A stretch of 64,000 nt of DNA from Escherichia phage vB_EcoM-Ro121c4YLVW. A program made the translations under genes and the position numbers. Within the stretch, counting starts at the first letter, position 1. Each line of letters opens with the position of its first letter. The stretch is from sequence record NC_052654.1; one strand, given 5' to 3'. Positions 1,253-4,264 of the stretch are shown piece by piece. The notes below the pieces were generated by a model. That model was not told the origin of the DNA. It saw only the letters and a list, made by a program, of their open reading frames with translations, and made no database searches.

Positions 1253-1549
1253 TTAGATTACGATCTTTTTAGGAACGTCATCTGTATTCTGCACGGCAGG
1301 AGTTTCTTCTTCCATAGCTTCATAATGTTCTTCTAACCATTCTTCTACTTGCTCTTTAATAGCTTTAGCTGCTTGGAAGCGGAGAGGTTTTGCTGCATCC
1401 TTATCATTAACAAGTTCAACAATATATCGCATAGCTTCTAAATAATGCTCTGCAAATAATTCTTTTACACTTGCTTGCGCCGCATCCATTGCGTAGATCT
1501 GTTGCATTTCGGCTGTTGGTCTTCCACGACCACGTTTTAGTTTAGGCAT
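1253..1549 (-). CDS. small DNA-binding protein with AT-hook-like motif (KRGRGRP)
   Basis: ORF track; N-terminal PKLKRGRGRPTA matches the AT-hook RGRP core; rest acidic helical. Confidence 0.45.
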   Translation of the reverse strand: MPKLKRGRGRPTAEMQQIYAMDAAQASVKELFAEHYLEAMRYIVELVNDKDAAKPLRFQAAKAIKEQVEEWLEEHYEAMEEETPAVQNTDDVPKKIVI

Positions 1550-1616
1550 AATAAAATCCTCCTAAACTTTATCTTAACATATAAAAAATAATAAGTCAAG
1601 TTTTATTCAATAGATA

Positions 1617-1641
1617 GCAAAAAGCCTCCAATAAGGAGGCT
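1617..1641 (-). terminator. intrinsic terminator closing the tRNA operon (AGCCTCC-aataa-GGAGGCT hairpin + TTTTT on minus strand)
   Basis: Perfect 7-bp inverted repeat followed, on the minus strand, by a T-run; lies downstream of the last tRNA. Confidence 0.55.
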
Positions 1642-1756
1642 AGTAAATACTGTTAAGTTGAAATGCTTTATTATAATTGTGCGTTAATGAGTCGCACCCC
1701 TCCATCTTAGAAGGAACCAGGCAAGGTCTTCAAAGATACCGCTGGCAAGCGATATT

Positions 1757-1835
1757 TGGAGGCGGGAATCGGATTTGAACCGATGATCTCCAGCATATGA
1801 AACTGGCGAGGACGACCAGACTCCTCTATCCCGCT
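1757..1835 (-). tRNA. tRNA with anticodon CAU (Met or Ile2/lysidine)
   Basis: Hand fold: T-arm ATCGG-TTCAAAT-CCGAT, anticodon stem CCAGT/GCTGG, loop TTCATAT, CCA encoded; A1-C72 mismatch at acceptor end. Confidence 0.6.
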
Positions 1836-1841
1836 ATTATG

Positions 1842-1911
1842 TATCCCGTGCTGGATTCGAACCAGCATCACAATAAGCTGTGGAACTCTTATCCTGTAAG
1901 TCTAACGGGAA
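1842..1911 (-). tRNA. tRNA-like gene with non-canonical anticodon arm (4-bp stem CACA/TGTG with 6-nt loop); possible pseudo-tRNA
   Basis: Canonical T-arm GCTGG-TTCGAAT-CCAGC and 6-bp acceptor pairing, but no 5-bp stem / 7-nt loop anticodon arm can be drawn; about 70 nt. Confidence 0.35.
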
Positions 1912-1913
1912 AC

Positions 1914-1987
1914 TGGTTGTTTCGACAAGAATCGAACTTGTGTCTCACGATTATCAGTCGTGGGTTCTACCATTGAACTACGAAACA
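1914..1987 (-). tRNA. tRNA-Ile (anticodon GAU)
   Basis: Hand fold: acceptor TGTTTCG/CGAAACA, D-arm GTTC..GAAC, anticodon stem CACGA/TCGTG, loop CTGATAA, T-loop TTCGATT, CCA encoded. Confidence 0.7.
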
Positions 1988-1993
1988 TTTAAT

Positions 1994-2070
1994 TGGTCGG
2001 GACGGAGTGATTCGAACACTCGACCTCTCGCTCCCAAAGCGAGCGCACTACCAAGCTGTGCTACGTCCCG
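1994..2070 (-). tRNA. tRNA-Pro (anticodon UGG)
   Basis: Hand fold: acceptor CGGGACG/CGTCCCG, anticodon stem CTCGC/GCGAG, loop TTTGGGA, T-arm GAGTG-TTCGAAT-CACTC, CCA encoded. Confidence 0.7.
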
Positions 2071-2163
2071 TGATAACATTCTAAAGGTACACCGCAAAAG
2101 AAAGTGTTCGGCGGCTCCTCGTTTTTAACTTCACACTTAAGGTAGTGACTCACCTTTGTTATA

Positions 2164-2239
2164 TGGCTGGTCTGTCTGGATTTGAACCAAACCTACGACA
2201 GTCAAAGTGTCGTGTGCTACCGGACTACACTACAAACCA
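2164..2239 (-). tRNA. tRNA-Gln (anticodon UUG)
   Basis: Hand fold: acceptor TGGTTTG/CAGACCA, anticodon stem CGACA/TGTCG, loop CTTTGAC, T-loop TTCAAAT, CCA encoded, 76 nt. Confidence 0.65.
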
Positions 2240-2337
2240 ATAAATCATTTAATGAAGGGCAACCAGAAGAAGTGTGAGAGAAGGAGAAAACCATGAGTAA
2301 AAGAGAAAGTTTTCTGGCAACCCTTTATTAAATAATT

Positions 2338-2411
2338 TGGAGCGTTCTACGAGGATCGAACTCGTGCCGCCGACTTGGAAGGACGGAATGCTACCGCTAC
2401 ACCAAGAACGC
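2338..2411 (-). tRNA. tRNA-Gly (anticodon UCC)
   Basis: Hand fold: acceptor GCGTTCT/AGAACGC, T-arm ACGAG-TTCGATC-CTCGT, anticodon loop CTTCCAA (one T-T in stem), CCA encoded. Confidence 0.6.
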
Positions 2412-2422
2412 CATATATATTT

Positions 2423-2452
2423 ACTATACTACATTTTACTATTTGTTGTCAA
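2423..2452 (-). promoter_or_regulatory. sigma70-like promoter inside the tRNA cluster (TTGACA-N18-TATAGT on minus strand)
   Basis: Consensus -35 with near-consensus -10 read on minus strand, directly upstream of tRNA-Gly. Confidence 0.5.
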
Positions 2453-2725
2453 GACTTTTATTGATTGGGACAGTGACGAGTATCCCGTTGGGTGACTAGC
2501 CCTACGTTCGGTAAGCTAACTTAAAATAATACAAAACCAAAGTCAAATATTATTCTTCGTTGCTGTCGATGGGAGAGCCGCTTCTCATTTTGCCCCATCC
2601 AACCCTACTCCGGTCAAGTTTCGGGTGACTCTTTTTGTGATCAACACAATACTAAGAACACTGTCTTTCGAGCAGACCTTGTGCACAGGATACGACGATC
2701 AATCACAGTGCTCTTAATGTTGTGT
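2453..2725 (-). ncRNA. non-tRNA spacer inside tRNA operon; candidate stable small RNA(s)
   Basis: About 270 bp between tRNA-Thr and the internal promoter with no ORF and no T-loop motif; T4 carries non-tRNA stable RNAs in its tRNA region. Confidence 0.25.
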
Positions 2726-2800
2726 TGGTGCTCCCACACTGAATCGAACAGAGATCCACGGATTACAAAACCGTTGTAATAGCCATTATACTATAGGAGC
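2726..2800 (-). tRNA. tRNA-Thr (anticodon UGU)
   Basis: Hand fold: acceptor GCTCCTA/TGGGAGC (one G-U), anticodon stem ACGGT/TCCGT, loop TTTGTAA, T-loop TTCGATT, CCA encoded. Confidence 0.6.
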
Positions 2801-2806
2801 AATGCT

Positions 2807-2884
2807 GGGACTCGGCAGGATTCGATACCTGCAATTCCAGAAGCCTATTGGCGACTGGGGGGTTTACCTTAACTCTACAAGTCC
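2807..2884 (-). tRNA. tRNA-like gene with aberrant D/anticodon region (anticodon not assignable)
   Basis: Good acceptor pairing GGACTTG/CGAGTCC and T-arm GCAGG..CCTGC (8-nt loop TATCGAAT), but the central region (CCCCCC run) does not give a canonical anticodon arm; no CCA encoded. Confidence 0.3.
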
Positions 2885-2891
2885 ATAATTC

Positions 2892-2977
2892 TGGCGATGA
2901 GTATAGGATTCGAACCTATATTGTTCTTTCGAACACGGATTAACAGTCCGCCGCTTAAACCATTCAGCCAACTCATC
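2892..2977 (-). tRNA. type II (long variable arm) tRNA with anticodon GUU (Asn-decoding anticodon on a Tyr-like body)
   Basis: Hand fold: acceptor GATGAGT/ACTCATC, anticodon stem GCGGA/TCCGT, loop CTGTTAA, variable-arm hairpin GTTC-GAAA-GAAC, T-arm ATAGG-TTCGAAT-CCTAT, CCA encoded. Confidence 0.5.
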
Positions 2978-2983
2978 TTAATT

Positions 2984-3071
2984 TGGTGGTGAGTGATGGA
3001 GTCGAACCACCCGAATCGCAATGATAACAGATTTACAGTCTGCCCCGCTACCCCTACGGAATTAACTCACC
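2984..3071 (-). tRNA. tRNA-Tyr (anticodon GUA), type II
   Basis: Hand fold: acceptor GGTGAGT/ACTCACC, anticodon stem GCAGA/TCTGT, loop CTGTAAA, long variable arm, T-loop TTCGACT, CCA encoded. Confidence 0.6.
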
Positions 3072-3201
3072 TAAATACTAATATTTAAATTCTTTTTAAA
3101 ATAGCCAGTGTTCACACCACTAACTATGAGGTATCGGTAAAGTGGTTACCGCCACTTGCCGAAGATTTACTCTGCTAAAGTAAGCTACATTAAAAAGAAC
3201 T

Positions 3202-3287
3202 TGGCGGTAGATGTAGGACTCGAACCTACACGCCGTTTCCGACTACAGTTTAGCAAACTGTCGTGGCTACCATTTCACCAATCTACC
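3202..3287 (-). tRNA. tRNA-Ser (anticodon GCU), type II
   Basis: Hand fold: acceptor GGTAGAT/ATCTACC, anticodon stem ACAGT/ACTGT, loop TTGCTAA, long variable arm, T-arm TGTAGG-TTCGAGT-CCTACA, CCA encoded. Confidence 0.65.
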
Positions 3288-3292
3288 TAATC

Positions 3293-3383
3293 TGGCGGAA
3301 GGAGGGAGAGTCGAACTCCCAAGGCTCTTTCAAGCTCGGCGGTTTTCAAGACCGTTTTCGTCGCCACATCGATTTGCCCTTCC
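3293..3383 (-). tRNA. tRNA-Ser (anticodon UGA), type II
   Basis: Hand fold: acceptor GGAAGGG/TCCTTCC, anticodon stem CGGT/ACCG, loop CTTGAAA, long variable arm, T-arm GGGAG-TTCGACT-CTCCC, CCA encoded. Confidence 0.6.
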
Positions 3384-3617
3384 ATACTTATAATCTAACA
3401 TAAAATAATGTTTGTTGTCAATAGTTTTTTAAAACATTTTACCATGAATGGTGACTCCACCAACCCCCGTTCTCCACGAACGGTGCTCTTCGAGCATTTA
3501 TGTCTTCTAATATAACCGTGGCCTTTGTTTATAATGTCTGACATACTTGCCTCATTCTCTGCCACCATGATCAGTAGTGGGTTCAAATCACTTGAGCTAA
3601 TTCATGTTAAAATGTTC

Positions 3618-3692
3618 TGGTGTCTTTACAAGGAATCGAACCTTGACTAAGAGTTTAGAAGACTCCTGTGCTATCCATTACACCATAAAGAC
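3618..3692 (-). tRNA. tRNA-Arg (anticodon UCU)
   Basis: Hand fold: acceptor GTCTTTA/TAAAGAC, anticodon stem GGAGT/ACTCT, loop CTTCTAA, T-arm CAAGG-TTCGATT-CCTTG, CCA encoded. Confidence 0.7.
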
Positions 3693-3694
3693 TT

Positions 3695-3769
3695 TGGTGG
3701 CCCTGGCTGGTTTCGATCCAGCTACCTATCGGTTATGAGCCGACAGCTCTCCCATTGAGCTACAGGGCC
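3695..3769 (-). tRNA. tRNA with anticodon CAU (Met elongator or Ile2)
   Basis: Hand fold: acceptor GGCCCTG/CAGGGCC, D-arm GCTC-AATGGGAGA-GC, anticodon loop CTCATAA, T-arm GCTGG-ATCGAAA-CCAGC, CCA encoded. Confidence 0.65.
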
Positions 3770-4015
3770 ATAAATGTGGTAACAGAGACGCTGACGATTG
3801 TAGAGAACCGCTACATTCTCTAAGACCAAGCCCAACTTTCAGCGTAAAAGTTCTTGAGCCGAGACTATTCCTTTTCCTCTTTGGTAGCTAACCTCTGAAG
3901 AAGTAGTCTCTAACACTACCGCAGTGCAAGCCCCTCTTAACAAAAGTCAACGACCCTGTTACCACACTTGATGAACGTATCCTAACATATGAAGGATACG
4001 TTTGTCAATAGTTAT

Positions 4016-4264
4016 TTAAGCATATTCTGCTACTTCTTCACTATCTTTCTTTTCCAGAAGAGCAACAACCAAAGCTTCTGCGTTAAAAGTGTTAATTTCA
4101 AGATCCATCTCTCGCATCAGAGCCAAGAAATCAATAACTTTAACATCTTTAGTGATTACAATAGAAGTTGTACCATTGTTTTCAGATGTGTATTTTTCTG
4201 GATGGAAAAGAAAAACTGCATTGCCGTTACCATCTTCAAACACGTGTTTTTCTAATAGAGACAT
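4016..4264 (-). CDS. hypothetical protein
   Basis: ORF track, start moved to internal Met (MSLLEKH) preceded by AGGAGG. Confidence 0.45.
   Translation of the reverse strand: MSLLEKHVFEDGNGNAVFLFHPEKYTSENNGTTSIVITKDVKVIDFLALMREMDLEINTFNAEALVVALLEKKDSEEVAEYA

Follow-up and report, generated by a model that had tools for sequence, protein, structure and literature searches.

In bacteria, the long extra (variable) arm is reserved for the transfer RNAs (tRNAs) of leucine, serine, tyrosine and selenocysteine (Sec). Here we describe a gene for tRNA-Asn(GUU) carrying such an arm, together with two nearby tRNA-like elements, in a 64,000-nucleotide (nt) stretch of the genome of Escherichia phage vB_EcoM-Ro121c4YLVW (NC_052654.1), referred to below as the window. 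We consider it probable that the gene, at 2892-2977 on the minus strand, specifies a functional phage tRNA-Asn on a class-II body with an extra arm kept by selection, and that its two neighbours, at 2806-2884 and 1840-1911, specify tRNA-shaped RNAs unable to decode. Long-arm tRNA-Asn(GUU) genes of this kind are called Asn-II throughout.

The joining of a class-II scaffold to the anticodon of a class-I amino acid, as in Asn-II, is reportedly also found in the nematode nev-tRNAs and eukaryotic V-arm tRNAs of Hamashima et al.; the nev-tRNAs are said to be charged with leucine against their anticodon, and to be eukaryotic and unrelated in sequence to Asn-II. The allo-tRNAs, and other irregular tRNAs with a long V-arm in bacteria and phages, likewise combine a long variable arm and G73 with anticodons other than those of Ser, Leu or Tyr, and they too occur in phages, on mobile elements and within polycistronic clusters (Mukai et al. 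2017, PMC5389517). In allo-tRNAs, however, the acceptor/T helices are 8/4 or 9/3 and the D arm is Sec-like (PMC5389517), whereas Asn-II combines a 7/5 configuration with a D stem of 3 base pairs (bp) and an 8-nt D loop with G18G19. This configuration and the normal D arm rule out an assignment of Asn-II to the allo-tRNAs, and the anticodon "GUU" is absent from the main text of the allo-tRNA paper (PMC5389517).

Among ordinary bacterial tRNAs, the five-arm cloverleaf of Asn-II, with its 3-bp D stem, is shared by tRNA-Tyr(GUA) and tRNA-Ser. The former also has a short extra stem followed by three unpaired 3' nt, and differs from Asn-II by its anticodon and by A73 in place of G73; the latter resembles it in body, D arm and G73, from which Asn-II departs by its GUU anticodon, a shorter and differently set extra stem and, in the window, A2-U71. 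With the tRNA-Asn of Escherichia coli (asnT/U/V/W), Asn-II has GUU and G73 in common, and the window gene matches asnT throughout the 18 nt of the anticodon arm; the differences are a 15-nt extra arm in place of a 5-nt variable loop, a 3-bp D stem with G13.A22 and, in the window, G1-C72 and A2-U71 as against U1-A72 and C2-G71. Phage T5 encodes a 78-nt, type-I tRNA-Asn(GUU) in the same genomic slot, with RNA3 next to it, as the Asn-II of T5-like phages; its anticodon stem is altered (UAAGUU), whereas Asn-II keeps the host-like UAAUCC. The element at 2806-2884 matches T5 RNA3 in D region, 8-nt T loop, architecture and place right after tRNA-Asn, and differs in the sequence of its central hairpin and in having G1-C72 without CCA where T5 encodes ACCA and U1.U72. 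Element 1840-1911 belongs to a family separate from T5 RNA3. Phage T4 also produces tRNA-like stable RNAs, known as species 1 and 2.

Window positions 1500-4200 match, at 100% identity, Escherichia phage ESCO13 (Phapecoctavirus, Stephanstirmvirinae; KX552041.2, 57106-59806, reverse strand), and copies named after ESCO13 below are those of the window. A preliminary description based on hand folding had placed a long-variable-arm tRNA with anticodon GUU at 2892-2977, and all the programs used agree with it. ARAGORN calls tRNA-Asn(gtt) at exactly 2892-2977(-); the Rfam tRNA model (RF00005) scores 62.1 bits (E=6e-12, covariance-model E-values being rough throughout) with a 12-nt insertion in the variable region; the minimum-free-energy (MFE) structure from RNAfold is a five-arm cloverleaf with acceptor, D, anticodon and T stems of 7, 3, 5 and 5 bp; and the tRNAscan-SE-based GenBank annotation of relatives reads tRNA-Asn-GTT, 86 nt. 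The 7-nt anticodon loop, CUGUUAA, has U33 and a purine at 37, and discriminator G73, at position 2895, is followed by CCA. Instead of the 4-5 nt of a class-I variable loop (AUGUC in E. coli asnT), the variable region comprises 15 nt with a 4-bp hairpin, the GTTC-GAAA-GAAC hairpin of the hand fold reappearing in the MFE cloverleaf. An adjoining tRNA-Tyr with loop CTGTAAA was likewise recovered (Rfam, 39 bits at 2987-3071), and the check with ARAGORN and the Rfam covariance model brought neither a rescue by canonical folds nor a reassignment of the loci to Tyr/GUA. A misregistered Tyr(GUA) fold for 2892-2977 was rejected; the gene has GUU and G73, not GUA and A73. An intron and a tRNA-Sec assignment were also considered and rejected.

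Homologues of the gene are spread over several phage groups. The counts given here come from pattern-limited scans, and IMG/VR includes isolate genomes. BLAST of the 86-nt gene against 50,697 phage records matched 756 of them, for the most part at features annotated as tRNA-Asn among the matches listed; in 232 of the 756 the match spans at least 80% of the query, and such alignments probably run through the extra arm. Five-arm versions, of 84-86 nt by ARAGORN (parsing of its output mis-registers a few 3' ends) and of 81-83 nt in the records' own annotations, occur in several isolates, with ARAGORN confirmation in the Justusliebigvirus phages SD2 and arall, Klebsiella phage KPP-1 (Vequintavirinae), Serratia phage CBH8 (T4-like) and Salmonella phage SB9 (T5-like); homologues of 81-86 nt are present in Justusliebigvirus, Mydovirus (Vequintavirinae), Winklervirus (T4-like) and Epseptimavirus (T5-like). 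We collected a total of 96 distinct type-II tRNA-Asn(GUU) sequences from T4-like, T5-like, Vequintavirinae, Stephanstirmvirinae and uncultured phages, which give good tRNA scores throughout and have a variable region of 11-19 nt (mode 15).

When IMG/VR was scanned with the Asn anticodon arm alone as bait, which does not select for arm length, 13 of 114 Asn tRNAs (11%) proved to be type II (at least 81 nt), and other expected class-I isotypes at the same loci had long arms in ~3-4%. A long-arm-specific pattern gave at least 120 matches in IMG/VR and 76 in bacterial and archaeal genomes (one per species, 185,579 species). ARAGORN confirmed 17 of these 76 cellular matches as type-II Asn, and 11 of the 17 are in tRNA arrays, within 8-kb stretches holding 7-36 tRNA genes. 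BLAST against 5,426 complete E. coli genomes detected no copy of Asn-II, in prophages or elsewhere, the host asn genes being too short as matches. Asn-II is confined almost only to phages and the tRNA arrays of mobile elements. The gene itself is already public, listed in the records as "tRNA-Asn", and for its class-II architecture we found no prior description: full-text literature searches returned no account of a long-arm tRNA-Asn in phages, the nearest papers dealing with allo-tRNAs, PARIS and anticodon-loop evasion, and no paper on the class-II architecture of Asn-II, its spread among phages or a link between an RNA3-like mimic and tRNA-Asn.

The extra arm is under selection, because it covaries and its hairpin energies are better than those of shuffled sequences. 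For 19 diverse sequences from the ESCO13-like subgroup, RNAalifold gave a five-arm consensus with double-sided changes in 16 of 24 pairs, the pairs of the extra stem accounting for 1, 8, 11 and 6 such changes. The hairpins of 32 distinct variable regions average -3.9 kcal/mol, and shuffled sequences -0.8; most of the regions beat their shuffles, and the arm loops are mostly GNRA-like. Asn-II arms mostly have a 3-4 bp stem and 3-4 unpaired 3' nt, the number of such nt having a mode of 3 in tRNA-Tyr and of 1 in tRNA-Ser, where the stem has 4-8 bp. The arm in the window has 0 unpaired 5' nt, 4 bp and 3 unpaired 3' nt; the corresponding values are 1/3/3 in E. coli tyrT, and serV has 6-7 bp and 1 unpaired 3' nt. 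Since the oddities of these genes recur in many unrelated phages, we regard them as selected features.

The arm might still be the functionless relic, hard to remove, of an alloacceptor switch that left a working Asn tRNA behind, either from Tyr (GUA to GUU with A73 to G73) or from Ser (GCU to GUU). The anticodon of Tyr or Ser(GCU) is one base away, the arm geometry is Tyr-like on a Ser-like body, one locus can hold either a type-I or a type-II allele, and a natural Tyr/Asn-II chimera exists in the T5-like IMG/VR contig L230. Such a relic would nevertheless have kept its arm, with GNRA-type loops and many compensatory changes, through 96 sequences that diverge widely; a large subgroup has ordinary tRNA-Asn-like acceptor and T arms, which suggests repeated gain or long maintenance; and long arms are enriched in Asn (11%) over other non-class-II isotypes (~3-4%) and restricted to mobile elements. 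We therefore think this explanation unlikely. With regard to the ancestor, a nearest-neighbour analysis of the tRNA bodies split the family into Ser-like G1 and Asn-like U1 subgroups. The chimera of L230 lies directly upstream of RNA3; it has a Tyr-like 5' part, with a CUGUAAA loop and a GCCCUUCGGGG arm, and passes at the T loop into an exact type-II Asn 3' end, GGUUCGAAUCCUACACGGCCCGCCA, which implies recombination between neighbouring class-II tRNA genes.

Long arms are also found on other class-I isotypes of viruses. Several occur together in some IMG/VR clusters (Asn, Cys and Trp in L020; Gly, Glu, Pro and Ile in L103), and the viral counts are 9 of 64 for Thr(UGU), 8 of 58 for Cys and 0 of 94 for Lys. 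IMG/VR loci such as L007, L026, L068, L103 and L122 have a tRNA-Ile(UAU) of 91-99 nt in which a long extra arm bears a conserved CCAGAUUAG motif and the D arm is made of a stem and a tetraloop. This kind accounts for 15 of the 25 distinct viral Ile(UAU) tRNAs and is probably part of the class of allo-tRNA(UAU) described by Mukai et al. 2017.

Which amino acid Asn-II receives is a matter of choosing between Asn and Ser. The identity set of E. coli asparaginyl-tRNA synthetase (AsnRS) consists of the anticodon and G73, the latter being an antideterminant for the tyrosyl and leucyl enzymes (TyrRS and LeuRS), and C2-G71 is listed as an antideterminant for the seryl enzyme (SerRS), G2-C71 being conserved in bacterial tRNA-Ser (PMC9976931). 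For serine identity the variable arm counts foremost and the anticodon is disregarded, and mistranslation results when tRNA-Ser carries a foreign anticodon (PMC9976931); a long arm with G73 has served as a rule of thumb predicting the Ser identity of allo-tRNAs (PMC5389517). E. coli SerRS is reported to read tertiary shape.

Judged from these determinants, charging of the 2892-2977 product with Asn would be most likely, and Ser mischarging possible, because the gene has the Asn anticodon with G73, an anticodon arm identical to that of asnT and homologues in the tRNA-Asn slot of T5-like sets. In T5-like contigs chosen by the RNA3 motif alone, the gene order is Tyr-Glu-Trp-Phe-Cys-Asn-RNA3-Asp, and the Asn slot is filled either by the type-I allele of T5 (9 loci) or by an 83-nt type-II gene (14 loci), so that Cys-Asn(type I)-RNA3-Asp in T5 corresponds to Cys-Asn(type II)-RNA3-Asp in its relatives. 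The Asn tRNA of the slot is the sole GUU tRNA in each of these stretches, which cover most of the tRNA set. The suggestion in the preliminary description that the GUU tRNA is altered in its decoding finds no support in these observations.

Several points weigh on the other side. The G1-C72 (ESCO13) subgroup has an acceptor/D/T body nearest phage tRNA-Ser, at 0.84 identity. AsnRS, a class IIb enzyme, approaches its tRNA from the variable-loop side, and an extra arm could clash with it. The presence of G73 in 87 of the 96 Asn-II sequences is, like the anticodon-arm statistics, partly a product of the search, in which the patterns required GGACTGTTAATCC. Finally, the 4-bp extra stem of 2892-2977 is as long as that of the window's own Ser(GCU).

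Taken to its end, this would make Asn-II a missense tRNA, a SerRS substrate by virtue of its long arm and G73 (and of G1-C72 and C11-G24) that inserts Ser, or a mixture of Ser and Asn, at AAC/AAU. The main reliance of SerRS on the variable arm, with disregard for the anticodon (PMC9976931), and the same logic as applied to allo-tRNAs (PMC5389517) speak for it, as do the Ser-like body, a window D arm, UGGCUGAAUGGUUUAAGCG, that resembles the Ser D arms UGGCUGAGUGGUUUAAGGCA, and the presence of G2-C71 in 11 of the 19 members of the G1 subgroup. The window gene, which has the long arm and G73 expected of a Ser tRNA, nonetheless combines G1-C72 with A2-U71 in place of the G2-C71 conserved in bacterial tRNA-Ser, Ser tRNAs of the same data set having G-C in 60 of 69. 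Its arm is Tyr-like and not set as in Ser, with 3 unpaired 3' nt (AAU) instead of about 1 after a 4-8 bp stem; the stem is shorter, and the D loop is 1 nt shorter than in Ser-like arms, differences that bear on an enzyme reading tertiary shape. Over half of the wider family has U1-A72 (56 of 96), and 42 of 96 have C2-G71, as in bacterial tRNA-Asn; the slot gene is the only GUU tRNA of complete T5-like sets; and a proteome-wide Asn-to-Ser error is unlikely to persist in four phage families. A missense tRNA thus appears improbable, and an Asn tRNA on a class-II body remains the reading that we prefer.

The two neighbouring elements are a different matter. The preliminary description had credited 1842-1911 and 2807-2884 with good acceptor and T arms and no standard anticodon arm, and this part stands in RNAfold, while details of the hand folds had to be corrected. 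Neither element yields an ARAGORN call, an Rfam family at E<=1 or a cloverleaf with a 5-bp stem and 7-nt loop. Element 2806-2884 folds into a 7-bp acceptor, a D region GUAGAGUUAAGGUAAACC, a long central hairpin and a T arm with the 8-nt loop UAUCGAAU; the central arm is made of CCAG/CUGG and GCC/GGC closed by the 4-nt loop AAUA, which is not an anticodon loop, and the fold of 2807-2884 has z=-3.77 against shuffles (RNAfold). The C-run noticed earlier is present, not in the central region but in the D region, as a homopolymer of varying length.

The T5 record lists rna3 (T5s07), a "putative tRNA-like RNA", directly after tRNA-Asn. This RNA and 2806-2884 share the D region GUAGAGUUAAG(G)UAAACC, the 8-nt T loop (C/U)AUCGAAU and the overall layout. 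Short-word BLAST gave no link between 2807-2884 and T5 RNA3; the link came from sequence comparison and was confirmed by a covariance model for which only RNA3 sequences of T5-like phages, seven in number, were used; its best match in the 64-kb window is 2806-2884(-) (34.4 bits, E=9e-8). The joint alignment has double-sided changes at 4 of 7 pairs in the acceptor and 3 of 5 in the T stem, and at 9 of 18 pairs over the family; 88% of cells pair, and sliding the partners lowers this to 34-44%. In L290 and L345, a third lineage, the helices are entirely different in sequence (UGCUUG/CAAGCA, UCUAGA-AUUU-UCUAGA and GUAGG/CCUAC), with the same architecture and the same location between Asn-II and Thr. 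An RNA3-like element follows Asn-II within 60 nt in 19 loci, and lies directly 3' of a phage tRNA-Asn in the window (7-nt spacer), in T5, in 14 T5-like loci and in L290/L345. As its central arm always ends in a 4-6-nt loop, the RNA3-like RNA cannot decode. An apparent special conservation of 2807-2884 between genera (93-97%, against 74% for Asn-II) was dropped, since Ser(GCU) also reaches ~96% by our own count.

Element 1840-1911 has a 7-bp acceptor helix with a U1.U72 mismatch, a normal T arm and the D hairpin CUUA-CAGGA-UAAG, and the fold of 1842-1911 has z=-2.4 against shuffles (RNAfold). In place of the 4-bp stem and 6-nt loop of the hand fold, its central hairpin is better described as CACAG/UUGUG, 5 bp with a 4-nt loop (6 bp with a 5-nt loop in relatives), and the earlier statement that it lacks a 5-bp/7-nt anticodon arm is upheld. 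Homologues adjoin tRNA-Tyr in the Vequintavirinae phages A7_1 and LTH01, with a central loop of 4-5 nt, and that of phiEB49 is annotated as tRNA-Val(AAC) and has a 7-nt loop. Double-sided changes occur in 6 of 18 pairs among five sequences. A covariance model of this family, R2, scores six members at 82-99 bits and ordinary tRNAs at no more than 38 bits, the closest being tRNA-Arg(CCU) of phiEB49, and it found no members outside Phapecoctavirus, the two Vequintavirinae and phiEB49.

Because their helices are kept by compensatory changes across phage families, both elements appear to be conserved, structured tRNA mimics that are unable to decode, and not decaying genes; a decoy role for them is a guess. 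That all three loci are non-functional, decaying tRNA pseudogenes, as the preliminary description had allowed, is very improbable: 1840-1911 and 2807-2884 do lack an anticodon loop and encoded CCA and leave standard tRNA finders silent, the C-run of the latter does vary in length and another member of the cluster is labelled tRNA-Pseudo in the phAPEC8 record, but the double-sided changes in both families extend across distant phages, the third RNA3-like lineage preserves architecture and position on different helices, the RNA3 model finds 2806-2884, and Asn-II has a good tRNA score everywhere.

A possible reason for the extra arm is suggested by the defence system PARIS. Its nuclease AriB cuts the Lys(UUU), Thr(UGU) and Asn(GUU) tRNAs of E. 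coli at UAAUC/N (the slash marking the cut), the Asn site being UAAUC/C, and the T5 versions of the Lys, Thr and Asn tRNAs neutralise PARIS (PMC12409363). T5 tRNA-Lys did not become cleavable again when its cleavage sequence was restored, so that contacts beyond the anticodon arm must count, and one of AriB with the D loop has been proposed (PMC12409363). In the T5-like slot, type-I Asn genes have the altered stem UAAGUU (9 loci) and type-II genes the host-like UAAUCC (14 loci), a pattern that would fit two alternative escapes from one pressure. As the cleavage sequence of AriB is retained in the anticodon stem of Asn-II, any evasion must be steric. The earlier idea of an anticodon-nuclease decoy or countermeasure stays live, with circumstantial support from the targeting of tRNA-Asn by AriB (PMC12409363). 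Set against a protective arm are the very retention of the cleavage sequence, the derivation of the two-allele pattern from only two lineages, and the finding of long arms in 0 of 94 viral tRNAs for Lys, the prime AriB target.

According to the mechanism that we envisage, Asn-II would be transcribed in a polycistronic tRNA unit and processed as its neighbours are. We infer that host AsnRS charges it with asparagine through the GUU anticodon and G73 on the asnT-identical arm, after which it would read AAC/AAU. The selected feature would be an extra arm whose stem of 3-5 bp usually carries a GNRA-type tetraloop and is followed by 3 unpaired 3' nt, in the geometry of bacterial tRNA-Tyr and not of tRNA-Ser. 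The most likely role of the arm, though a speculative one, would be to reshape the tRNA core such that host defence nucleases directed at tRNAs, for example AriB of PARIS, reject it while AsnRS, EF-Tu and the ribosome accept it; the two mimics, probably matured by the tRNA processing machinery, could act through their tRNA-like shape, for instance as a decoy or partner for tRNA-recognising proteins. In Justusliebigvirus the genes form a Lys-Tyr-Asn-mimic-Thr block, and we raise tentatively, as a somewhat doubtful proposal, that type-II Asn and the RNA3-like mimic, often in such a block, constitute an anti-defence cassette, with the arm as a steric shield and the mimic as a decoy at the site where the nuclease binds the tRNA body. 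If true, the arm would be a second evasion route besides mutation of the anticodon stem or loop.

All three loci are housed in a minus-strand tRNA cluster at 1757-3769, with early and DNA-metabolism genes on one side and the terminase and structural module on the other, and the spacers around them, of 2-7 nt, are the same as between ordinary tRNAs of the cluster. Three sigma-70-like promoters and a terminator-like hairpin (Table 1) suggest three transcription units, of which the second would read Ser(UGA)-Ser(GCU)-Tyr-Asn-[2806-2884]-Thr and the third Gly-Gln-Pro-Ile-[1840-1911]-Met.

Table 1. Positions in the window of the Asn-II gene, the two tRNA-like elements and associated features
Feature	Position	Strand	Basis and remarks
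Type-II (five-arm) tRNA-Asn(GUU), 86 nt, G73 and encoded CCA	2892..2977	-	ARAGORN, Rfam, MFE cloverleaf, RNAalifold
Anticodon GUU	2942..2944	-	Anticodon arm including G26, 18 nt, GGCGGACUGUUAAUCCGU, identical to E. coli K-12 asnT
Extra (variable) arm: GUUC-GAAA-GAAC hairpin directly after nt 43, then unpaired AAU	2920..2934	-	RNAfold
tRNA-like RNA, T5 RNA3 homologue, no encoded CCA	2806..2884	-	T5-like RNA3 covariance model, compensatory pairs, fold z
Second tRNA-like RNA, no CCA	1840..1911	-	RNAfold, covariation, covariance model R2
tRNA-Tyr(GUA), type II, immediately upstream of the Asn gene, same predicted transcription unit	2985..3071	-	Rfam 39 bits; tRNA-Tyr-GTA (tRNAscan-SE) in ASO2A
tRNA-Thr(UGU), immediately downstream of the RNA3-like element	2726..2800	-	ARAGORN/Rfam scans
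Sigma-70-like promoter	4008-3979	-	Consensus match only
Sigma-70-like promoter TTGACA-18-TAGATT	3392..3421	-	Consensus match only; would drive Ser-Ser-Tyr-Asn-RNA3like-Thr
Sigma-70-like promoter TTGACA-18-TATAGT	2423..2452	-	Consensus match only; would drive Gly-Gln-Pro-Ile-[1840-1911]-Met
Intrinsic-terminator-like hairpin ending the tRNA cluster	1623..1641	-	Annotated terminator in phage ASO2A

Other members of the cluster are unusual as well. The upstream tRNA-Tyr(GUA) has no ARAGORN call, no more than the 39-bit Rfam match and an MFE fold that is not a cloverleaf. tRNA-Ser(UGA) at 3294-3384(-), also without an ARAGORN call, is seen only as a sub-threshold Rfam tRNA-Sec match (35.7 bits, gathering score 47) and has an odd D region, CAAAUCGAUGUGGCGACGAAAA, resembling T5 tRNA-Ser2(GGA). 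The 79-nt tRNA-Met(CAU) at 1757-1835(-) has an A1.C72 mismatch and an enlarged D loop, and its phAPEC8 orthologue is labelled tRNA-Pseudo-CAT. Spacers of 85-300 nt within the tRNA units (2075-2160, 2245-2335, 2420-2720, 3075-3200, 3390-3615 and 3780-3975, minus strand) are without open-reading-frame annotation or Rfam match; T5 has stable RNAs of unassigned function at comparable places. In phAPEC8 (NC_020079.1, 31932-32504), a 190-amino-acid "histidyl tRNA synthetase", far below the full length of that enzyme, is annotated, the orthologous region lying ~27 kb from the cluster.

For annotation practice, these results mean that Asn-II genes are being labelled plain "tRNA-Asn" and that the two mimics are left unannotated, while T5 RNA3, annotated merely as a putative tRNA-like RNA, belongs to a conserved, Asn-linked family of anticodon-less tRNA mimics. 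Because SerRS takes a long extra arm as its main recognition handle, phage-restricted long-arm Asn tRNAs pose an identity problem, that of avoiding Ser mischarging and of fitting the arm into a class IIb synthetase. The type-I and type-II alleles at one locus of close T5-like phages offer a simple system for the part that tRNA body architecture, beyond mutations of the anticodon loop, may play in escaping PARIS-type systems.

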